Shown in pieces: positions 8,570 to 27,826 of a stretch of DNA of 34,986 nucleotides (its first letter is position 1; each line of letters opens with the position of its first letter). The DNA comes from Bacillota bacterium (GTDB lineage: Bacteria > Bacillota > UBA5301 > JASBVW01): positions 1-34,986 of the forward strand of contig JASBVW010000001.1 in NCBI GenBank assembly GCA_029961005.1, in the 5' to 3' direction. A program made the position numbers and the translations under genes. Below the pieces are notes generated by a model. The model made no database searches. It was not told the origin of the DNA and was given only the letters and a program-made list of their open reading frames with translations.

Positions 8570-8733
8570 ACTAAGCCTCAACTCCTACCGGCAATTTTCT
8601 TCTGTATAATTATCCTTGCCGCTCTTTTTAAAACGACCACCTATCCGCCACCATTCCCGTCCAAAAGCGCTCATAGGGCTGAATCAGCAAGGATGGCGAT
8701 CCTATTCCTGCTTCTGCACGTTTTCTGGCGCGG

Positions 8734-18011: not shown

Positions 18012-19718
18012 CTAAAAGGCCTGCCCAAAGCTGAAGTAGGTCTGGGCCTGGCGCCCCGGTGCGCCAAAGCCGTGGTCGATCCTGATCACGCCCACCGGCG
18101 TATCCACGCGCACCCCGAGGCCGAAGTTGGAGACCATCTCGTCCAGGCGCAGGGGCTCGTCCCTCTTCCAAGCTTTGCCCAGGTCGAAAAAGACCGCTCC
18201 CTGCAAGTTTTGGACGATCCAGAAGCGGTACTCCGCGTTCAAGACCAGCTTCTTGTCCCCGACGAAGTAGTTGAGGGGATACCCCCGGAGGGTATCGGAT
18301 CCGCCCACGGAGAAGAGCTCATGGGGCGGCACCGACTCGCCGGTGATGAGACCGGCGTCGAGGTGCAGGGCCACCGTCTGGCCGGCCCACCCCGCCTTGT
18401 AGTACTGGCTGAGGTCCACCTCGTATTTGTTGAAGATCCAGTCGCTGCCCAGAAACTGAGGGGCAAACTCCGCCGAGACCGAGCGCCGGCCGCCGGAGGT
18501 GGGGCGCAGGATGAAGTCCCGGGTGTCGTTGACCACGGAGAAGGTCAAGCTGCGGGTCTTGCCGTACTGAAAGTCCGGGTTCACGTAGCCCTCGTACCTG
18601 GTATCCTCCACGGTCAGGCGCCCGGAGACCCGGGTGAAGTCGTCCAGCCGCCGCCCCAAGGTGACGTCGCCCCCCGCTTCGTATTGGTTGTACGTGTTTC
18701 CGTACTCGTCCACCCGATTGAGCAGCCGCCGGTTGTAGAGATTGAACCCGCCGAAGGTCCCCCGGTCGTCCAGGTAGGGCTCAAAGAACCCCAGTTCCCA
18801 GGTGTTCTTGTTCTTTCCAAATTCCCAGCGCACGTTGACCCGCTGGCCGCGGCCCAGGAAGTTTTCGTCCGCCACCTCCAGGTAACCCACCAGGCCATCG
18901 CTGGAGCTCCAGCCGGCGCCGGCGGCCGCCGTGCCTGTCTTGCGCTCCTTCACCTCGATGGTGAGGTCGGTGACGTCGGGGTCGCTCGTCTCGCTGAACT
19001 TGCGGGAGACCTCATCAAAGAAACCCAGGTTGGCCACGCGGCGCAGGTCCGCCTGGAGCTTCTTCAGGTCCAGGACCTCCCCGGGTCGGGTCCTGATCTC
19101 CCGCCGGATCACGTAGTCCTTGGTCTTTTGGTTGCCGGTGATCTCGATCTTGCCCACGCGGGTCTCCGCCAAGACGATCTTCACGATCCCCGCGTCGGTA
19201 ATGGCCACGTCTTTGATCCGGGCCGGGATCCCGTACTCTTGAAAGCCCTTGTCCAGAAAGCGCTTCAACCCTTCCTGGAGCTTGTTGAGGTTGAGGATCT
19301 CCCCTACGGCAATGCCCAGTTCCCCCTTGAGCTGCTCGACCGGGAAGAGGGAGCCGCCGGTGATCTCGATGCCCTTGACGATGGGATTCTCCACCACCGC
19401 GAAGACCACCTTGGCTCCGCCCGGCTGCTCGCTCAGCCGGGCCCGGACGTCAAAGAAATAGCCCAGATCGTGGATGGCCTGCAGGTCCTTCTTCAGCGCT
19501 TCCTCGCTCACCGGCTGCCCGACCTTGGTCTCCTTGACCGCCTCCAGGATGACGTCCGCCGGTACGTAGTGATTTCCTTCCACGGCGATTTCGGTCGCTA
19601 TGGGGTTGGCTCCCCGCGCGGGCGGGACACCCCACCCCAAAAGAAACAGACCGGCTACCGCGAGCAACAAGACGCTTGGTGCTGCGACAGTCCGCATGCG
19701 CTGCTGCAAGTAGTTCAC
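18012..19718 (-). CDS. bamA: Outer membrane protein assembly factor BamA (Omp85 family), apparently with three POTRA domains
   Basis: 568 aa with a signal peptide. POTRA-like repeats span roughly residues 40-260 (IAVEGNHYVPADVI, IEITGGSLFP, IEITGNQKTKDYVIRREI). The Omp85 barrel carries the RGY motif (GGSDTLRGYP), VRIDHGFG, and ends in FSFGQAF. The start is a GTG after GAGGAGG. Confidence 0.92.
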   Translation of the reverse strand: MNYLQQRMRTVAAPSVLLLAVAGLFLLGWGVPPARGANPIATEIAVEGNHYVPADVILEAVKETKVGQPVSEEALKKDLQAIHDLGYFFDVRARLSEQPGGAKVVFAVVENPIVKGIEITGGSLFPVEQLKGELGIAVGEILNLNKLQEGLKRFLDKGFQEYGIPARIKDVAITDAGIVKIVLAETRVGKIEITGNQKTKDYVIRREIRTRPGEVLDLKKLQADLRRVANLGFFDEVSRKFSETSDPDVTDLTIEVKERKTGTAAAGAGWSSSDGLVGYLEVADENFLGRGQRVNVRWEFGKNKNTWELGFFEPYLDDRGTFGGFNLYNRRLLNRVDEYGNTYNQYEAGGDVTLGRRLDDFTRVSGRLTVEDTRYEGYVNPDFQYGKTRSLTFSVVNDTRDFILRPTSGGRRSVSAEFAPQFLGSDWIFNKYEVDLSQYYKAGWAGQTVALHLDAGLITGESVPPHELFSVGGSDTLRGYPLNYFVGDKKLVLNAEYRFWIVQNLQGAVFFDLGKAWKRDEPLRLDEMVSNFGLGVRVDTPVGVIRIDHGFGAPGRQAQTYFSFGQAF

Positions 19719-19796: not shown

Positions 19797-20507
19797 CTAC
19801 GGGTGTCCGGCTGAGCCGCGCAAAGAATCAGAGGCCAGTTTGACCAGCTGGTTGAGATCTAACTCGATCTGGGGAGCCGGCCGGTCAGCCTCGGCTGCGG
19901 CGGCTGCCGGATCGGCCGCCGCCGGAGCAGCCGCGGCCGGCGCCACAGGCTCCGCGAGCGCCGGGGTCGGGCCGCCACCGGTCACCCCGTCCGCCCCTTT
20001 AACCTCCTCGGCCGCACTCAATTCTCCGCCTCCGGCAGCGGTGGAGGCAGCGAGGGGCGCGGTCGGCACGGCCTCAGCCCCCACCGGCCGTACAGCCGCC
20101 ACTGCCTTGGGCCGCGGAGCAGGGGCCGGAGGCTGCTCCCGCGGCGCCGGCGCTGCAGGAGCAGGAGTCACGGCCGCCACGGGGGTCGGCAAAACCGGGG
20201 CCGCAGCCGGCTGGGCCAGCCACCCGAGCACCGCCAGGGCCACCGCCAGAAGACCGCCCCCCCAGGCCGCCGCCCGGAAGAGGCGCCCCCGGGGCCGGGC
20301 GTCCGCCCTGCCGGGCAAAGCCCAGGCCTGCCGGCGCACGGACCTGCCCTGCCGGCTCATCTCCCAAGCGCGGCGCACCTCCCCCAGAACCAGGGAGAGG
20401 GTCAACTCGCCCCGCACCGGATTATCTTTGCTGAACTCCTGCTCGGCCTGCTCCAGCCACTGCCTGGCAAAGCGCAGATGCCGCACCACCCCGTGCTTTT
20501 CACCCAT
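19797..20507 (-). CDS. Single-pass membrane protein with an Ala/Pro-rich ectodomain, a candidate anti-sigma or regulatory partner of the upstream sigma factor
   Basis: 236 aa. A helical cytoplasmic N-terminus of about 55 aa is followed by one TM (WGGGLLAVALAVLGWLA) and then a low-complexity A/P-rich tail. The start lies 14 nt after the sigma gene stop. No zinc-finger (HxxxCxxC) anti-sigma motif is present. Confidence 0.5.
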   Translation of the reverse strand: MGEKHGVVRHLRFARQWLEQAEQEFSKDNPVRGELTLSLVLGEVRRAWEMSRQGRSVRRQAWALPGRADARPRGRLFRAAAWGGGLLAVALAVLGWLAQPAAAPVLPTPVAAVTPAPAAPAPREQPPAPAPRPKAVAAVRPVGAEAVPTAPLAASTAAGGGELSAAEEVKGADGVTGGGPTPALAEPVAPAAAAPAAADPAAAAAEADRPAPQIELDLNQLVKLASDSLRGSAGHP

Positions 20508-20521
20508 CGCTCCACCCTCCT

Positions 20522-21172
20522 TTACACCCGTGCCAGATCAGGCAGCTCCCGAGCCAGCATGCCGCGCAGGCGCCGAATGGCCCTGCGCTGGAGCCGGTAG
20601 AGGTATGAGGTGGTAATGTTGAGCTGGGAAGCAATGCGGGAAGGCTCCTGCTCGGCTACATAGACGCCGTTGACCACCGCCTGCTCCTTCTCCGGCAGGC
20701 GATGCACCAGCCGGGCCAGGGTACGCCTGAGTTCCCACCTCTCCAACTGCTCCTGCGGCTCGGAGGTATAGCCCTCGCCGCCCACCGCCAGCTCGCCTGC
20801 CCAGGCCGGTGAAGACTCCTCCCAGGAGAGGGGAGCCGGTTCTCCGCGGACCTCCCGGAGGTAGTCCAGGATGTAGCCGCGGATCCACCGGCGGGCGTAG
20901 GCGCTAAACGGAACCCCGCGCCGGTGGTCAAACCGCTCCACCGCTTCAATCAGCCCGACAGTCCCTTCCTGGATCAGATCCAGCACAAAATGCTCTTCCA
21001 AGCCGTAGTTGCGGGACGCCACCAGCTTGAGCACCAGGGACTGATAGAACTCGATCAGGAGGCGCCGGGCCTCCAGGTCGCCCTCTTCTTTATAGCGCGA
21101 CCACAGCTCCTGCTCCTCCTCTGGAACCAGGGGCTTCACCTGTCGCAGCGCTTCTAGGTATTCCTTGAGCAT
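20522..21172 (-). CDS. Sigma-70 family RNA polymerase sigma factor, group 3 / FliA-SigF-like, with a short region 3
   Basis: Region 2 reads DLIQEGTVGLIEAVERFDHRRGVPFSAYARRWIRGYILDYLRE. The region 4 helix-turn-helix reads PSRIASQLNITTSYLYRLQRRAIRRLR. I prefer the ATG at 21172 (MLKEYLE). The ORF track starts at a GTG at 21256. Confidence 0.8.
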   Translation of the reverse strand: MLKEYLEALRQVKPLVPEEEQELWSRYKEEGDLEARRLLIEFYQSLVLKLVASRNYGLEEHFVLDLIQEGTVGLIEAVERFDHRRGVPFSAYARRWIRGYILDYLREVRGEPAPLSWEESSPAWAGELAVGGEGYTSEPQEQLERWELRRTLARLVHRLPEKEQAVVNGVYVAEQEPSRIASQLNITTSYLYRLQRRAIRRLRGMLARELPDLARV

Positions 21173-21262
21173 AAGCCCCACCGTTGGAGTTCTTCGACTG
21201 TTCCAGGGCAATTCCTTCCGCTCTCCCACAACAATTCGTGACAGAGCGGCCACCACTTGGGA

Positions 21263-24200
21263 TTAGAACCTGAGCTTGCCCTCCAAACCCAGCCAGACCT
21301 CACCCCGGCTGTCGAATCCGCTGGTGAAGACCACTCCCGGCTTCAAGCGGTATTCGAAGCGCAAGGACTCGTCTGGTTTTTCCAGGTTTAAACTGCGGCT
21401 GTAGGTGACGTACAGGTCGTCGACCAGGTACTTGCCGAACTGCATCTGCACCTGCTCCTCGGCAAAGCCCCGCTCCAGCCTGAATTCGTCCAACTGAAGC
21501 ACATCCCGCACCGCATGCTCCAACCCTTTAAAGACGGTGCCGCGGATCTCCTCATCCAGGAGGCTCAGCATCTCCTGGCCGGTGACCTCCCCCGCCTCGC
21601 CGCCCCGGAGCAGGCGGGAGATCCTCCCCGTCAGAGCCAACCGCTCCAGAATCTCCTCCTCCGAAAGCGGAGGGTCGGAAGAGAGCTGCAGGTCGAGCTC
21701 CGGCACCTGGCCGGAGATGCGCAAGCCGATGAGGGCATCCTCCGCCCTGGCCTGAGCCTTGACTTCCAGCTGAGGATTTATGCCGTGCAGCGAGGTAAAG
21801 ACCGCCGAACCCTCGCTCACCCGGAAGACGGTGCCCAAATAGACGATGACGCCGCGGGTGGCCTCCGCCCGCCCCGCTAGGGTGGGCTCCCTGAGGGTCC
21901 CGCCGATCTTCAGCCGGCCGTAGGCCCGCACATCCACGCTCTCGCCGCCCACGATCCGGACGTCGTCGGCATTGGTCAATTCCACGTCCAGAGCGGCGTC
22001 GAGCGGAGAGTGGCCCCCTCCCAGGTGGCCGCCCAGGTTAAGGGTGGTCCTGGCCAGCTGCACCCTTCCCTGCAAGAGAGGGAGGTTCGCCGGCCCGCGC
22101 AGGGAGAGATCGGCATCGATCAGGCCGTCCAGGAAGGAATCGGAGTAGTGCAGATCCTCGGCCTGGAGGTACAGGTCCACCTCCTGCACCGCCAGGCCTC
22201 TCAGGGTCAGGATGCCCCTCCCGGCAGCCGTACCCTCGTTTACCTGCGCGCTGGCGCGCTCGATCACCACCTGGTGGCCGCGGAAGAGCAGGCGCCCTTC
22301 CCCCTCCGCCACCGTAAAAGGAGGGGCGGAGAGAGAGAGCTGCTCGAACTGGAAAGCGCCGTAGACCCCCACCTCATCCCAAGGGCCGATTAGGCGCAGG
22401 TTCAGGGCACCGCGCCCCTCCTGAATGGCCTGGCGCCCCCAGGCCAAATTGAGGATCTTCAAGCTCCCCCGCGGCAGCGAGACGGTCAAATCCACCGGTG
22501 TAGCCGCCGCCCCGGCGGCGACGCTCAGGCGCTCCGCCAGTGCGGGGGGAAGAGGAATCCTCCCCTCCACCTGGAGGAGCTGGCCGTCCGCAGCCACCTG
22601 TAGCCCTTCCAGCTCCACCGCTCCCTCCGCCAGGCGCACCGTCCCCTCCGCGCGCTGGAAGGGGACCTCACCCATGCGCCCGTCCTCCAGGTCGAAGGAG
22701 CCCTCCAGGCAGGGGGAGACCGCCGACCCCGTGATCCTAGCCTGTCCGCTCAACTTCCCCTCGAGCGGGAAAGCAGGGTCCCACATCCTCAGCACGGACT
22801 CTACCGCAAAGGACTCTGCGGCGACGGAAAGATCCAGTGCGCCGGCGGTACTCCAAGTTCCGCGGGCCGAAAGGCTCCCTCCCCCCTTTTGCACCACTAA
22901 GAACCTCTCCAGGGAGACGCGCTCGCCCTCCATCTCCATAGCCAGGGCAGCGGTCAGGTCCCCTTCCCCCCGGCGCCCCTCCGCCGCCAGCAGGTTCACC
23001 CTCACCCGGGGGTGGGAGGCGCGCCCGGTCAGCCAGGCGGTGCCGTCGCAGAGCGCTTCCACCCCCGCCGGGGGCCGTTGATCGGCGATCTTGAGCAACT
23101 CCGAAAGCCTGGCTCGCCTGAACTCCACCTTGACTTCGAAGGCCGGGTCCGGCTGAAGGGCCAGCTCCCCATTCAGGGTGTACTCTTCCTGGCCCCGCTG
23201 GAGCCGCAGCCCGGTGAGGTACAAGCGCCCGCCTCTGTATTCCACCGGTCCGGCTGCGCGGTCCAAAAGATAGGGGCCCAGCACCAGGCTCTGGGCTTTG
23301 ACCTCCCCGCCCAGGTGAGGGTCTTTGAGCGTCCCCGAGAGGCGGCCGGTAAACTCCACCGTGCCCGCCGCCCGGCCCAGGCTGGCCGCCAGTTGCGGAA
23401 AAGCCGCCAGTTGGACCTGCTCTATCCGGAGGTCGATGGCCAGCTCCTCCCCCTGGATCGTGCCGCTGCCGTAGCCGCTGCCCAGGGGGCTTTCGATGGT
23501 AAAGGAATCCAGGAGAATTTCCCTCCCGCGCCCTTTGAACTGGATTTCGGCCCGCCGGAAGTCCTGGCCGGCCACCCGGCCTTTCGCTACCGACACCTTC
23601 CCCTCCAGAGCAGGCGCGGAGAGCGGGCCATGGAGGGCCACCTGCCCGTAGGCTTCCCCCTTGAGATCCCAGGAGACCCCGGCCAGGCGCAGGAGATCGG
23701 CTATCTCACCCCTTTCCACCTCCCCGGTCAGGCGAGCCACGGGCCCGGCCGCCTCGAAGAGCAGTTCCCCCTCCAGCCGGTAGGCGGAGCTTCCGTGCAG
23801 AATCGCCACCTGTTCCAGCTCCAGCCGGGGCCGCTGCCACCGGAGATAACCCTCGGCCCGTTCAAAGGTCCGATCCCGCCAGGCGGCTTCAGCGACCCCG
23901 AACCAGCCGGAGACCGCCGGGTCGGCCAGGGAACCCTCGACGCGCCCGTGAAAGCGCAGGCGCCCTCTCACCTCGCCGGCGCCCGCCCTGCCGCGCCACT
24001 CCTCCGGCAAAAGCGGCCAGAGCTCCGCCAGGTCGACCTGGCGGAGGTCCACCGCCAGCGCCAGCTCTCCCTCCGGGGAGACCTCGCCCGAAGCTACAGC
24101 CACAGCACCCCGCCGGAAGACTTTGAGCTCGTTGAAGTGCCAGACGCCCCCTGCCAGCATAAAGCCGGCCTCCAGCCGGTCTGCTTTCCAATTCCGGAAC

Positions 24201-24475
24201 GAAGGCCCTTGCACCGCCAGGTCTCCGGTGAGCCGGACCTGCTCTCGTCCCCACCCTCGCCCGGACCCGACCAGCCGGCCCTCCAGGAGCCCTTCGCACT
24301 GAGGAACCCCGGCCAGTCCGGCGTCCCGGAGGGCGCGGGAGAGGGTGGCCAGATCCACCCTCTGCACCCGGAGGACCCCCGCAAAGGCCCAGGGGTTCCC
24401 CCGGCCGCCCACCACCCCTTCCCCGGTGGCGTCACCGGCTGGGCCGCGGACGGCCAGGCGGCGGACGGTCCACAC
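21263..24475 (-). CDS. tamB: TamB-like translocation and assembly module protein, C-terminal 1070-aa portion (DUF490 end)
   Basis: Long repetitive beta-rich sequence. The C-terminal DUF490-like segment is QFGKYLVDDLYVTYSRSL...FEYRLKPGVVFTSGFDSRGEVWLGLEGKLRF, ending in Phe. This frame opens only 8 codons upstream of the nominal GTG at 24475. Confidence 0.8.
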   Translation of the reverse strand: MWTVRRLAVRGPAGDATGEGVVGGRGNPWAFAGVLRVQRVDLATLSRALRDAGLAGVPQCEGLLEGRLVGSGRGWGREQVRLTGDLAVQGPSFRNWKADRLEAGFMLAGGVWHFNELKVFRRGAVAVASGEVSPEGELALAVDLRQVDLAELWPLLPEEWRGRAGAGEVRGRLRFHGRVEGSLADPAVSGWFGVAEAAWRDRTFERAEGYLRWQRPRLELEQVAILHGSSAYRLEGELLFEAAGPVARLTGEVERGEIADLLRLAGVSWDLKGEAYGQVALHGPLSAPALEGKVSVAKGRVAGQDFRRAEIQFKGRGREILLDSFTIESPLGSGYGSGTIQGEELAIDLRIEQVQLAAFPQLAASLGRAAGTVEFTGRLSGTLKDPHLGGEVKAQSLVLGPYLLDRAAGPVEYRGGRLYLTGLRLQRGQEEYTLNGELALQPDPAFEVKVEFRRARLSELLKIADQRPPAGVEALCDGTAWLTGRASHPRVRVNLLAAEGRRGEGDLTAALAMEMEGERVSLERFLVVQKGGGSLSARGTWSTAGALDLSVAAESFAVESVLRMWDPAFPLEGKLSGQARITGSAVSPCLEGSFDLEDGRMGEVPFQRAEGTVRLAEGAVELEGLQVAADGQLLQVEGRIPLPPALAERLSVAAGAAATPVDLTVSLPRGSLKILNLAWGRQAIQEGRGALNLRLIGPWDEVGVYGAFQFEQLSLSAPPFTVAEGEGRLLFRGHQVVIERASAQVNEGTAAGRGILTLRGLAVQEVDLYLQAEDLHYSDSFLDGLIDADLSLRGPANLPLLQGRVQLARTTLNLGGHLGGGHSPLDAALDVELTNADDVRIVGGESVDVRAYGRLKIGGTLREPTLAGRAEATRGVIVYLGTVFRVSEGSAVFTSLHGINPQLEVKAQARAEDALIGLRISGQVPELDLQLSSDPPLSEEEILERLALTGRISRLLRGGEAGEVTGQEMLSLLDEEIRGTVFKGLEHAVRDVLQLDEFRLERGFAEEQVQMQFGKYLVDDLYVTYSRSLNLEKPDESLRFEYRLKPGVVFTSGFDSRGEVWLGLEGKLRF

Positions 24476-25698
24476 CCCGCATACTCGACCGCTGCCTCAG
24501 CCTGTCGCCAGGGCAGGCCGAAGAGCTCCCTTCCCTCCCAGGTCAGGGAGCCGCTAAGCACGAGATCGTCCACCGGCCCGCTCGCCAACCCGTGCAGAGT
24601 CAAGCGGCCGTCTGTCTTGCGCCAGCCGACCCGCAGCGCCTCAGGCCACTCTGGCCGCGGGAAGAGAGCTTGCACCGCCCTCGACCGCAAGGAGACCCCT
24701 GCCAGCTGCAGGCGCACCGCCAGGCGCGGGCGCTCCCAACCGGCCAGCTCTCCGCTCAGGCGGCCCTGGCCTTCCGCCCACCGGAAGCGCAGCCCCTTCG
24801 TGCTGATCTTTTCCCCGGCCACCTCCACCTGGCCGGTTAAATCTTCCAGGCGCACCCCCCGGTTCAGCGAGAGCGCCACCCCGTTCAGGCGGGCCAAACC
24901 GACCACCAGGGGTTGTTTAGGCTCCCCCTTCACCTCCACCTCCAGGTCGACGACGCCCCGGGGCTTCAGGCCGGACCACCATCCTCGCCACTGGGGCGGA
25001 AGAGGCAGGCGCTCCCCGGCGGACAGGTCGAGGGAGGGCAGGCGGAGGCGCAGGTCGAGGAGAGGCCGGGGCGCCGGGACGATCTTCCCCTCCAGGGCCC
25101 AGGGAGACTTCCCCTCCCGCCAGCGCCCCTCCAGCCAGGCTACGCGCCAGGAATGCCCGTCCAGCTGCATGCGGCCCCGTATCCCCTCTAGGTGCACGAC
25201 CTCCCCGCCTTCCCCGCTGAACGACGCCTTTCCTCGCAAAAGGTTGAGCCAAAGGCGCAGGTTACCCCTCCCGCCCGCCTCGGCCGAGAAGCGGGCGGAA
25301 AGTTGCGCTGCCTCCTGAGCCGAAAGGTTCAGTTCTGGATCCCATACGGAGATGTAGGTGAGAGCAGCCTCCGGGTGTCCGGGGTGAGTGAGCAGCCTCC
25401 ACAAGCTGTACCCCAGCTCCACCCGCGGCGCAGCAAAGAACGGCGGACGACCGGCTGCCGTCGAGCCCAGCGTGAGGTGGCGCAGCACCACGACCTGAAA
25501 GAGCCCGGGTTCTACCCCCTCTACCTTGACCGGCAGCCCTAAGGCCCGCGTGAGCTCGCGCGAGGCCAGGGCGGCCAGATCCATCCGGCTCTGCTCTCGA
25601 CTCGCCAGGCCAAGAAGGAGATGGGAGGCGGCAGCGAAGAAGAGGAAGGCCAGCCCCAGGAGGGACGCCGCCATGAAGATTCGCACCCTTGTTCGCAC
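24094..25698 (-). CDS. tamB: TamB-like N-terminal portion (membrane anchor plus about 400 aa); the 3' 380 nt look like out-of-frame read-through
   Basis: The GTG at 25698 follows GAGGAGG. The N-terminal TM is IFMAASLLGLAFLFFAAASHLL. The sequence looks like a real protein down to about 24479 (AEAAVEYAG), then turns W/G/S/P/R-rich while the overlapping frame (21263..24475) reads as a real protein. Confidence 0.7.
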   Translation of the reverse strand: MRTRVRIFMAASLLGLAFLFFAAASHLLLGLASREQSRMDLAALASRELTRALGLPVKVEGVEPGLFQVVVLRHLTLGSTAAGRPPFFAAPRVELGYSLWRLLTHPGHPEAALTYISVWDPELNLSAQEAAQLSARFSAEAGGRGNLRLWLNLLRGKASFSGEGGEVVHLEGIRGRMQLDGHSWRVAWLEGRWREGKSPWALEGKIVPAPRPLLDLRLRLPSLDLSAGERLPLPPQWRGWWSGLKPRGVVDLEVEVKGEPKQPLVVGLARLNGVALSLNRGVRLEDLTGQVEVAGEKISTKGLRFRWAEGQGRLSGELAGWERPRLAVRLQLAGVSLRSRAVQALFPRPEWPEALRVGWRKTDGRLTLHGLASGPVDDLVLSGSLTWEGRELFGLPWRQAEAAVEYAGCGPSAAWPSAAQPVTPPGKGWWAAGGTPGPLRGSSGCRGWIWPPSPAPSGTPDWPGFLSAKGSWRAGWSGPGEGGDESRSGSPETWRCKGLRSGIGKQTGWRPALCWQGASGTSTSSKSSGGVLWL

Positions 25699-25813: not shown

Positions 25814-27826
25814 TCACCGCTTGAGCGGCCGGGCGCCGGGCCCGGAGTTTTCGGGCCAGGGAGTGATGGTCAAATCGAACTGTTCCAGACCTTCAATGTA
25901 GTAGGGCGTAGAGACCAGGGCCTTGACGGGAGGGAGCTCCCCCTGAACCCCCGGCTCGGCCTCCCCGTTCCCAGTGGGGGCGGGAGCCCGCTCCGGTTTG
26001 GCAGGCGGCAGCGGTGGCCCTGCCGTCAGGGCTCTCTTCTCTCCCCCTTCCGCCACCCCTTCCTCCAACAGCCCCTCTTCTCCCGGCACCAGAGGGACAA
26101 ACTCCGCAATCAGGTCGCTGTTCTTCTCCCGCCGCACAAAGTCGTCGATCAGTTTGCCCAGGCTCTCATAGCTGGTCCTGGTGCGCTCTTCCTCTTTCTT
26201 CTCTTTCTCCGGCTGTTTCTTTTCGCCTTTCTTCTCCGGCCCTTGATGAGAAGGGGTGAGAGGGGGCAGCTCCTCCCCGTACCCCAGATCCGCCCCGCCG
26301 CGGACGGTGACCGTAACCGTTCCCGGGGGCGTGCTCAGGGGAACATCCAACCTCAGGGTCTGCTTGACCGGCTCCTGCCGGTAAGGCCGCAGAAGGACGG
26401 TCAGCTCCACCGACTCTCCCGGGTGGATCTCCTTCCGCGCCGGGATGACCTTCTCGATGCGGGCCGTATTTCTGCTCTCGCTGACCTCCACCGTGAGGGA
26501 GACGTTCTTGACCCGTACAGACTGGAATTCGTTGTTCAAGACCATATCCAGCCCTTCCATGAACTCGCCCAGGCTGAGGGCGGCAATATCGAAGTCGCTG
26601 TAAAAGATGTTCTCCCTGGTAAAGCCCCCCTGAGGCAGGCCTTCCCCCTCCACCTGAAACCGCACCCGGGCAGTCCCCCGCCCGATGCGATCAAATCCCA
26701 GGTCCAGGGCCTGCAAGGCGGCCGAACCCAAAAGGTCCAGGGACAGCTGCTCGTCCTGGATCACTTCTACGTACAGGTCGCTCTGTCTCTGGCGGTCGCG
26801 GTCCACCACCCTGACGTGGACCGGAATGGCCAGGGGGCGCCGGCCCAACACCCCTGCCACCCCTTTCGCGCGGTCTTGTGTCACCGTCCCCACCAGATTC
26901 AGCGAGGTGCCAATCTTAAAGGGCATACCCAGGCTGGGAACGGCCAGGTGGATGTAGGCGCGGGTGGCGAAGAAATTGGCCGCCCCCCGGCTCATGAAGG
27001 GATGGCCAAAGGCCAGGAAGCGATCGCCTTCCACGTAGGTCACCGTCCCCAAGGCAGTGACCTCCACGTCGCCGCGCACCAGCTGCAGTCCGATGGCGCT
27101 TCCCGGCTGCAGCCTCTCCCCGCCAGCTCCCGGGTCGGGGCTCTTTCCACCGCCTTGTGGCAGCCCCCCTCCTCCGTTCAGGGGAATGACTTGCAGGTTA
27201 TAAGGGGCCAGCACGCGGCGCAGCCGCTCCAAAGCCCGAGCATTCAGGCCGCTGACCAGGACAGGCGTGGCTACGGGAACCATGGTCAGGGTATCGGGGC
27301 GCGGGGTCACCGCCTCCCCTGCTGCGACAAAGGACACGCCGGTCACGGTCCGCCCGTCCAGGGCCAAAGGCTCCGTCAGCGGCAGATAGGTTTCCTGGCG
27401 GACCAGTTCCAGGACCTGGAGCATATCAGCGATGGGGGTGACGAAGCCGATGCGGTGGTCGGTGTAATCAAAGGCAAAAGAAAGCGCCCCCACCAGGCGG
27501 CCGTCGATGTAGACCGGGCTGCCGCTCATTCCGGCGGCAATGCCCCCGGCCTCATCGATGAGGGGACCGCTGACGCGCACCAGGATGAGGTCCCCCGCCG
27601 GCCCGGGAGCGGTGACGACTCCCAGGACCTCTACGTCAAAGTTCTCCACCGCGGTGCCGTGCAGCACCGTCTTCCCTATACCCCGGGCTCCTTTTTGCAC
27701 CTGTGCCACCGGAAGAAAAGCCGAAGCCGGAGCCGCCTCCCCGCTCTCGGTCGGCCATAAAATGAGCAGGGTCAGCACAACGGCGCCTACCAGCGCTCCC
27801 CGCAGGGAGAAAAGCCCTCTCTTCAC
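25814..27826 (-). CDS. Secreted peptidase S55 (SpoIVB-family) domain protein, non-canonical long form
   Basis: 670 aa with a signal peptide. The N-terminal protease-like segment contains GIAAGMSGSPVYIDGRLVGALSFAF, which is the S55 / chymotrypsin-fold serine motif. A Lys/Glu-rich linker (KKGEKKQPEKEKKEEE) lies near the C-terminus. It lacks the PDZ-first architecture of true SpoIVB. Confidence 0.55.
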   Translation of the reverse strand: MKRGLFSLRGALVGAVVLTLLILWPTESGEAAPASAFLPVAQVQKGARGIGKTVLHGTAVENFDVEVLGVVTAPGPAGDLILVRVSGPLIDEAGGIAAGMSGSPVYIDGRLVGALSFAFDYTDHRIGFVTPIADMLQVLELVRQETYLPLTEPLALDGRTVTGVSFVAAGEAVTPRPDTLTMVPVATPVLVSGLNARALERLRRVLAPYNLQVIPLNGGGGLPQGGGKSPDPGAGGERLQPGSAIGLQLVRGDVEVTALGTVTYVEGDRFLAFGHPFMSRGAANFFATRAYIHLAVPSLGMPFKIGTSLNLVGTVTQDRAKGVAGVLGRRPLAIPVHVRVVDRDRQRQSDLYVEVIQDEQLSLDLLGSAALQALDLGFDRIGRGTARVRFQVEGEGLPQGGFTRENIFYSDFDIAALSLGEFMEGLDMVLNNEFQSVRVKNVSLTVEVSESRNTARIEKVIPARKEIHPGESVELTVLLRPYRQEPVKQTLRLDVPLSTPPGTVTVTVRGGADLGYGEELPPLTPSHQGPEKKGEKKQPEKEKKEEERTRTSYESLGKLIDDFVRREKNSDLIAEFVPLVPGEEGLLEEGVAEGGEKRALTAGPPLPPAKPERAPAPTGNGEAEPGVQGELPPVKALVSTPYYIEGLEQFDLTITPWPENSGPGARPLKR

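Follow-up and report, generated by a model that had tools for sequence, protein, structure and literature searches.

A FliA-related sigma factor coupled to a SonB-family membrane protein, a candidate anti-sigma factor, between tamB and bamA of some diderm Firmicutes

The DNA analysed here (the window, 34,986 nucleotides (nt), positions 1 to 34,986 of contig JASBVW010000001.1 from a Bacillota bacterium, assembly GCA_029961005.1) carries on its minus strand, between tamB and bamA, a gene for a sigma-70 family protein (20522..21172) followed by a gene for a 236-residue single-pass membrane protein (19797..20507). On balance we favour the view that the first product is an alternative sigma factor and the second its cognate partner, anchored in the membrane and most likely acting as an anti-sigma factor, the pair being embedded in the outer-membrane cluster of some diderm Firmicutes. 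The functional coupling of the two proteins is firmly supported and an anti-sigma mechanism moderately so; that the partner physically binds and inhibits the sigma factor, and that the pair answers to a signal and commands a regulon of its own, is what we infer from the gene anatomy, the family placement of the sigma factor, the topology signals of the membrane protein, the synteny, the co-occurrence and the promoter footprint shown below, together with structural models. A sequence-only reading of the window had drawn attention to this pair of genes, describing the second, 14 nt downstream of the first, as encoding a helical head, one transmembrane segment and an Ala/Pro-rich tail; all of these features were recovered at the positions given, and the architecture of the membrane protein was borne out by its sequence and hydropathy. 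We know of no account of how outer-membrane biogenesis is regulated in diderm Firmicutes, which, to our knowledge, are without the sigma-E/RseA, Rcs and Cpx paradigms as described and possess a BAM complex without known accessory proteins. Literature searches found no description of a sigma factor encoded between tamB and bamA.

The sigma factor belongs to the sigma-70 family, as regions 2 and 4 both exceed the Pfam cut-offs (PF04542 Sigma70_r2, 58.5 bits, cut-off 24; PF04545 Sigma70_r4, 26.1 bits, cut-off 24.1). The earlier reading had extended the gene to position 21256, and while the gene is present the start is not: the mechanical open reading frame runs from 20522 to a GTG at 21256, but all 15 aligned orthologues begin MLxEYLxEL, so the true start is the ATG at 21172 and the protein comprises 216 residues. 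Against NCBIfam the protein reached no equivalog or subfamily cut-off, only the general superfamily TIGR02937 being passed. Its match to TIGR02479 (FliA/WhiG) was 85.9 bits against a cut-off of 189.6, compared with 298 bits for the genome's own FliA. In AlphaFold models, both of the sigma factor alone and of its fusion to the partner, the sigma-2 and sigma-4 domains are bridged by a low-confidence linker of ~25 residues and there is no sigma-3 domain, in agreement with the short region 3 that had been noted from the sequence. In a maximum-likelihood tree containing the sigma factors of this genome (86% complete, 1.76 Mb) and all those of five Negativicute genomes, the protein and its orthologues form their own clade (support 99/96) that is sister to FliA/WhiG (97/91) and lies apart from the sporulation, SigH and extracytoplasmic function (ECF)-like sigma factors. 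Thus, although the two-domain layout is that of the ECF (group 4) proteins, the tree groups the sigma factor with FliA; its position, together with the missing sigma-3 domain, indicates a FliA-derived, sigma-3-less protein that is not FliA itself. This supplies the phylogenetic placement that the sequence-only reading had called for, and sets the protein outside FliA. The remaining sigma factors of the genome are RpoD, SigF, SigG, SigE, SigK, SigH, a SigH-like protein and a canonical FliA/WhiG, the last encoded on contig C280 (353 bits, equivalog cut-off 343).

It could be argued that the sigma factor is a FliA paralogue devoted to the L/P-ring genes of the same cluster, a possibility that the sequence-only reading had held open and with which the sister relationship to FliA/WhiG is compatible. 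It should be emphasized, however, that orthologues (40-47% identity) occur throughout the Negativicutes, and that the pair is kept in non-sporulating, non-flagellate members such as Veillonella, Megasphaera and Dialister, genera with no more than 3-5 sigma factors. Indeed Veillonella ratti, Mitsuokella multacida and Megasphaera micronuciformis (genomes G005, G002 and G003) encode RpoD, a SigH-like protein and the tamB-bamA sigma factor only, with one further match below the Pfam cut-off in M. micronuciformis. The retention of the sigma factor in these minimal sets excludes a role confined to flagella or to sporulation. As, in addition, a canonical FliA is encoded elsewhere in the genome and the constant neighbours of the sigma gene are tamB and bamA rather than flagellar genes, a flagellar-ring function is very improbable, and the protein was likewise rejected as a housekeeping flagellar FliA. 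Some databases automatically name the sigma factor 'sporulation-specific'.

The case that the sigma factor and the membrane protein function together is based on their genomic distribution. Among 80 named loci, tamB is located 5' of the sigma gene in 78 and bamA 3' in 77, and in 75 a homologous membrane protein of 165-240 residues is encoded between the sigma gene and bamA. The recurrence of the same gene order in 75-78 of the 80 loci argues that the arrangement is not due to chance, and the conservation of the downstream gene is a point on which the sequence-only reading had staked its proposal. In a second sample of 301 genomes across the phylum, 72 of which are BamA-positive, a profile of the partner's N-terminal domain matched 23 genomes, once each; 22 of these contain BamA and the exception is a match at a contig edge. 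The sigma gene stood beside the partner gene in all 12 loci that were fetched. In 20 BamA-positive genomes without the partner, representing 20 families, tamB abuts bamA, and the best match to the sigma profile was at most 101 bits, the level of paralogues, versus 238-308 bits in seven partner-positive genomes. This matched co-presence and co-absence indicates that the two genes are gained and lost together, and only where an outer membrane exists. Within the window's own class (11 genomes) the pair occurs in three families and is missing from two. The partner is therefore both adjacent to, and co-inherited with, a sigma factor, as anti-sigma factors are, and the dedicated pair within the outer-membrane cluster that had been proposed from the sequence is upheld by these distributions and is consistent with the structural models described below. 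In the window, the stop codon of the sigma gene and the start of the partner gene are separated by 14 nt, with an AGGAGG ribosome-binding site preceding the latter, and the gap in relatives from the same class is 15-40 nt; the short gap and strong ribosome-binding site indicate that the two genes are probably co-expressed. In one complete genome (G170:C1:2559490-2565787) the sigma gene and a SonB-like gene lie ~3.2 kb apart, with an insertion between them.

The partner matched no family in Pfam or NCBIfam. Its homologues, however, share a clear architecture: an N-terminal domain of ~55 residues, one hydrophobic segment, a spacer of 55-133 residues with a high content of Pro, Ala, Glu and Gln, and, at the C terminus, a conserved helix. 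In the window protein the cytoplasmic N-terminal two-helix domain spans residues 1-57 (20337..20507, minus strand) and contains W17, L18, A21 and E43, which are invariant in the family alignments, making this the most conserved part of the molecule. Searched against 1.84 billion representative sequences, the domain profile matched 571 clusters (E ≤ 1e-10); in all of them the domain occupies residues 1-60, and the complete proteins are 170-245 residues long. The predicted transmembrane segment of the window protein (residues ~80-102; 20202..20270, minus strand; hydropathy 1.83) is preceded by five Lys/Arg within 15 residues and followed by none. The same bias was observed in all 74 family members analysed (mean 4.7 before the segment versus 1.1 after), in which the median start of the hydrophobic segment is residue 63. 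This distribution of charge points to an inner-membrane protein with its N terminus in the cytoplasm and its C terminus outside. The segment is followed by a Pro/Ala-rich spacer of ~120 residues, 78% of which are P/A/E/Q/T/S/V, and by the conserved, predicted periplasmic helix IELDLNQLVKLASDSLRG (19815..19871, minus strand). In the family as a whole the helix covers ~15-20 residues and ends in LRG; alignment columns 299-315 are conserved in all lineages and L229 is nearly invariant. Two matches encountered in these searches require comment. A repeat protein of 2105 aa (P0216) matched positions 7-29 of the N-terminal domain profile in 40 separate stretches and is probably an unrelated helical repeat that shares the xAxxWLxxA pattern. 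A homologue from Sporomusa silvacetica (P0124, SPSIL_043400) is called 'Anti-sigma-W factor RsiW' in UniRef and hypothetical at NCBI; the former appears to be an automatic label, as the family lacks the zinc-binding anti-sigma (ZAS) motif.

By position the partner corresponds to SonB, which was named in 2026 in Acetonema longum (F7NM24, encoded beside BamA, F7NM23, and SonA, F7NM22) and described as a protein that has a predicted transmembrane helix and is putatively a lipoprotein of the outer membrane (Nat Commun 2026, PMC13018214). The window gene, like that of A. longum, is located directly 5' of bamA in the order sonB-bamA-sonA-skp, and its product is likewise small, has a single predicted transmembrane helix and belongs to a group conserved across the Negativicutes; the comparison with F7NM24 is one of placement and description rather than sequence. 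Homologues were found in the Sporomusaceae, none of them named Acetonema. In contrast to the description of the A. longum protein, the family studied here has no conserved cysteine or lipobox and has its hydrophobic segment, flanked according to the positive-inside pattern, at around residue 63. A lipoprotein reading of the family was rejected on these grounds: 49 of 74 homologues contain no cysteine at all, and a lipobox-like motif was evident in one of the 74. The published study makes no mention of a sigma gene adjoining sonB, and reports that both SonA and SonB are absent from Veillonella parvula at a strict PSI-BLAST threshold (PMC13018214). At the loci of Veillonella ratti ATCC 17746 (L081) and another Veillonella species (L089) we observed a sigma gene, an open reading frame for a SonB-like protein of 201-208 residues with the head motif, bamA and a SonA-like match.

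To model the sigma factor together with the head of its partner, use was made of the closest named relative (locus L047), in which the two genes are in one frame, separated by TAG and five codons. The AlphaFold2 query was the read-through product, consisting of the sigma factor and residues 1-63 of the partner, with 25 paired read-through rows in addition to unpaired rows. The fusion (280 residues) returned a mean predicted local distance difference test score (pLDDT) of 82.9 and a predicted template-modelling score (pTM) of 0.70, compared with 86.5 and 0.56, respectively, for the sigma factor alone (211 residues) with the same set of orthologues; the partner was modelled as two long helices (pLDDT 86-92). 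A free-floating appendage of 69 residues would be expected to lower pTM. The increase observed instead suggests that the head holds sigma-2 and sigma-4 in a set arrangement relative to each other, in the way that anti-sigma domains do. The interaction on which the sequence-only reading had made its proposal depend is thus at least indirectly predicted. A Foldseek search of the fusion model against the PDB returned sigma chains only, at TM ~0.3, and is uninformative with respect to the complex.

Adjacency, co-occurrence and modelling show that the two proteins are coupled but not the sign of that coupling, and it could be argued that the partner acts positively, as a co-activator or membrane tether on which the activity of the sigma factor depends. 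This is improbable, since membrane-anchored proteins in which a small cytoplasmic sigma-binding head is joined to an extracytoplasmic region are nearly always inhibitors, as exemplified by RseA, RsiW, RsgI and Dma1, and since the partner has no recognisable sigma-activating domain. The pair resembles several such systems without being identical to any of them. RpoE (sigma-E) and RseA form the envelope-stress pair of the Proteobacteria, in which the single-pass RseA binds the sigma factor through its cytoplasmic N-terminal domain. The window pair likewise combines an alternative sigma factor with an inner-membrane protein that crosses the membrane once and would bind it through its N-terminal cytoplasmic part, and is linked to the assembly of outer-membrane proteins. 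It differs, however, in that sigma-E is an ECF protein while the sigma factor described here is related to FliA, in that the partner displays no sequence similarity to RseA and there is no RseB counterpart, and in that the genes are located within the tamB-bamA cluster behind a SigH-type promoter rather than one that is autoregulated. The sister relationship of the sigma factor to FliA and WhiG invites comparison with FliA/FlgM and WhiG/RsiG. RsiG, a helical hairpin, clamps both sigma-2 and sigma-4; the modelled two-helix head is similar to it in shape, and the RsiG-WhiG complex (6PFV) was among the Foldseek matches of the fusion model in the PDB. In contrast with the soluble FlgM and RsiG, however, the partner is predicted to be anchored in the membrane, and the sigma factor lacks the sigma-3 domain that FliA and WhiG retain. 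RsgI, the partner of SigI in Bacillus and the clostridia, has an N-terminal anti-sigma domain of ~50 residues that is joined through a single transmembrane helix to a sensing region outside the cytoplasm, a layout that is very similar to that of the window protein; the latter, however, has no match to Pfam RsgI_N, and presents a disordered spacer and short helix instead of a folded sensor domain. Finally, if the partner is indeed an anti-sigma factor, it would be similar to Dma1 of the Bacteroides Dma1/Das1 system, an envelope-spanning anti-sigma factor that controls outer-membrane behaviour, in reaching across the envelope (PMC10927553). Dma1 differs in that it ends in an outer-membrane domain, is paired with an ECF21 sigma factor and is restricted to the Bacteroidota (PMC10927553), while the window protein has only the conserved C-terminal helix of 15-20 residues at its end.

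The spacer between tamB and the sigma gene contains a conserved footprint, AATTG...GGAAGGAWT-N13-GTMGAA, the three blocks of which are invariant across four families. In the window the AATTG block lies at ~21229-21236 and is followed by an element that resembles a SigH-type promoter, AGGAAT-N12-GTCGAA (21193..21216; -35 AGGA, 17-nt spacer, -10 GAA), both on the minus strand. The pattern AGGAWT-N12-14-GTMGAA occurs at 11 sites in the genome, a number that none of 200 composition-matched permuted patterns reached (mean 0.79, maximum 7). These sites precede spo0A (TIGR02875, 301 bits), sigH, a comFB-like gene and genes for a LytS-like histidine kinase and an IclR regulator, as well as the tamB-bamA sigma gene; beside the window, the contigs on which they are found are C194, C156, C33, C243, C254, C96 and C300. 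In five relatives the motif is present before the sigma gene in all five, and before spo0A and the comFB-like gene in three each. The SigH consensus determined by differential RNA sequencing in Sporomusa sphaeroides is AGGA/GAAT with a 17-18 nt spacer, and spo0A serves as the reference target of a broad regulon that includes vegetative functions and is enriched in envelope biogenesis (PMC12456013). The motif probably marks the SigH regulon of this genome, and the sigma-partner operon of this lineage is, judged by its promoter region, probably SigH-dependent. An autoregulatory or sigma-28-like interpretation of the footprint was dropped because the same motif precedes spo0A and sigH. The promoter suggests a cascade from SigH to an outer-membrane sigma factor, which could explain why the minimal Negativicute set comprises exactly RpoD, a SigH-like protein and the tamB-bamA sigma factor.

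The SigH-type promoter, shared with spo0A and sigH and present before the sigma gene in four families, could also be taken to indicate a developmental device, switched on by SigH during sporulation or germination to convert the outer spore membrane to an outer membrane, in place of a steady-state sensor of the envelope. Such a role might account for the 'sporulation-specific' automatic name and for the increase in BamA, SonA and SonB in germinating A. longum (PMC13018214). The pair, however, is kept in the non-sporulating Veillonellaceae, Megasphaera, Dialister and Selenomonadaceae, the presence of SonA and SonB is uncorrelated with the ability to sporulate (PMC13018214), and the Sporomusa SigH regulon has the vegetative breadth described above (PMC12456013). 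The probability of a developmental device is therefore low.

Several observations weigh against the proposal that the partner is the anti-sigma factor of this sigma factor. Beyond isolated weak matches, 38 family members contained none of the known anti-sigma domains (RseA_N, RsgI_N, FlgM and others) in Pfam or NCBIfam, a profile search of the PDB with the head returned nothing significant (best E = 0.38, to a HEPN-like helix), and the ZAS motif HxxxCxxC is absent from the window protein, which has no cysteine; the partner thus belongs to no recognised anti-sigma family by any of these measures, as the sequence-only reading had anticipated in finding neither a ZAS nor an RsgI-like motif. The rise in pTM from 0.56 to 0.70 represents one pair of models, with a short fusion linker and scores taken without contacts or predicted aligned error, and no natural sigma-partner fusion was found among the best 150 of 819 profile matches. 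The sole experimental paper on SonB regards it as a putative outer-membrane lipoprotein (PMC13018214). Among the 72 BamA-positive genomes 50 do not contain the pair, which is thus not essential for having an outer membrane. The promoter before the sigma gene in this lineage is of the SigH type and not autoregulatory, and a shared promoter motif read by the sigma factor was sought in the window, the genome and the 80 loci, where none could be assigned. In addition, while the window's class leaves no room for a promoter between the two genes, the Negativicutes (L011-L089) have a terminator-like T-run after the sigma gene and then, 20-60 nt before sonB, a separate promoter-like motif, GKYCA-N17-(a)GGA(t)T(a)TA, so that the two genes do not constitute one transcription unit there. 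The geometry of this motif fits neither standard SigA nor SigH; its reading as a SigH -35 box was rejected, as GAAT is missing at a distance of 17-18 nt and the ribosome-binding site lies too near. No regulon for it emerged from a position-weight scan of the 80 loci, in which the plus strand gave 127 further matches, scattered in coding DNA, and the minus strand 68; the genome displayed no clear set of sites, and there was no strong match next to the sigma gene, sonB or bamA in the window. The best match of the window to the matrix (8606-8640, minus strand, 9.5 bits, a score near the bottom of the training range; GTGGTCG...AAGGATAATTAT) is in a region of lipopolysaccharide genes.

The separate sonB promoter of the Negativicutes, and the terminator that parts sonB from the sigma gene, would fit a view in which the partner is a structural or assembly accessory of BAM/TAM, a tether or chaperone that is anchored in the inner membrane and spans the periplasm, is co-inherited with the sigma factor only as its target, and has a head that binds something else. 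Consistent with such a role, sonB is co-transcribed with bamA, sonA and skp1, and SonB is co-expressed with BamA in A. longum (PMC13018214), and the long Pro/Ala-rich spacer and conserved C-terminal helix are reminiscent of envelope-spanning linkers. A purely periplasmic accessory, however, would not need a cytoplasmic head, yet this is the most conserved part of the protein, and the sigma factor is the only cytoplasmic protein encoded nearby. The co-loss with the sigma gene in every genome checked and the gain in pTM when the head is joined to the sigma factor also point towards the latter as the ligand, and co-immunoprecipitation revealed no major BamA partner in A. longum (PMC13018214). We thus consider an accessory role unlikely, although it retains some weight.

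If the partner is an anti-sigma factor, the system could operate as follows. The SonB-family protein would reside in the inner membrane with its N terminus in the cytoplasm, where its 55-residue two-helix head would hold the sigma factor, a FliA-derived paralogue minus its sigma-3 domain, probably between sigma-2 and sigma-4. The Pro/Ala-rich spacer of 55-130 residues would take the C-terminal helix across the periplasm, where it could sense the condition of the outer membrane or of BAM/TAM. Were the partner lost or cleaved, the sigma factor would be released to transcribe envelope genes. In the lineage represented by the window the two proteins would be translationally coupled behind the SigH-type promoter, such that SigH would set the supply of the pair while the partner would gate its activity. 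The pair may then sense the state of the envelope and count bamA among its targets. A more far-reaching version, which we offer tentatively and to which we attach a rather small chance, is that the pair constitutes a trans-envelope sensor exclusive to some of the diderm Firmicutes: the C-terminal helix would dock on BamA, SonA, TamB or the outer membrane itself, a failure of assembly would release the sigma factor to drive bamA-sonA-skp, the whole module would be under the control of SigH and so tie outer-membrane biogenesis to growth phase or development, and SonB would be an anti-sigma factor and not a lipoprotein.

A conserved regulatory pair between tamB and bamA offers a testable handle on outer-membrane regulation in diderm Firmicutes and, if the anti-sigma assignment is true, would recast SonB, which received its name as recently as 2026. 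The sigma factor would extend the known range of sigma architectures by a FliA offshoot devoid of sigma-3, and the paired presence or absence of the two genes among BamA-positive Bacillota may serve as a marker of envelope evolution in the phylum. What the window contributes is a high-GC lineage outside the Negativicutes in which the genes appear to be tightly coupled in translation, together with the co-absence test, the AlphaFold comparison of fusion and sigma factor alone, and the SigH-type promoter.

The minus-strand order of the surrounding genes is S55 peptidase, tamB, sigma factor, partner, a weak hairpin and bamA, beyond which lie a SonA-like gene, three skp paralogues and lpxD. The gene for the S55 (SpoIVB-like) peptidase (25814-27826) is located just 5' of tamB, and its product is a candidate periplasmic protease for the SonB partner; a peptidase gene of this type also precedes tamB at loci L047, L066, L080 and L084 and is present in both pair-bearing and pair-less lineages, in the latter at many of the loci where tamB abuts bamA, and is thus not specific to the pair. 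The tamB gene itself appears as two overlapping minus-strand frames, of 534 residues (24094-25698) and 1070 residues (21263-24475), the latter being the C-terminal frame that adjoins the sigma gene (Pfam TamB PF04357, 149.6 bits), and the split could reflect a frameshift or an assembly error in the metagenome-assembled genome. On the other side of the pair bamA (18012..19718) encodes a protein with three POTRA domains and matches to Pfam Omp85 (138.7 bits) and TIGR03303 (277 bits). Between the partner gene and bamA the weak hairpin and U-tract that the sequence-only reading had reported were located at 19759-19737 (minus strand) as GGCCGACCCGGCC followed by AATCTTTTTT, a terminator-like structure with a GC stem of only five base pairs and a T-tract. 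The hairpin is missing in the relatives of family f2, in which the partner gene is separated from bamA by ~20-25 nt.

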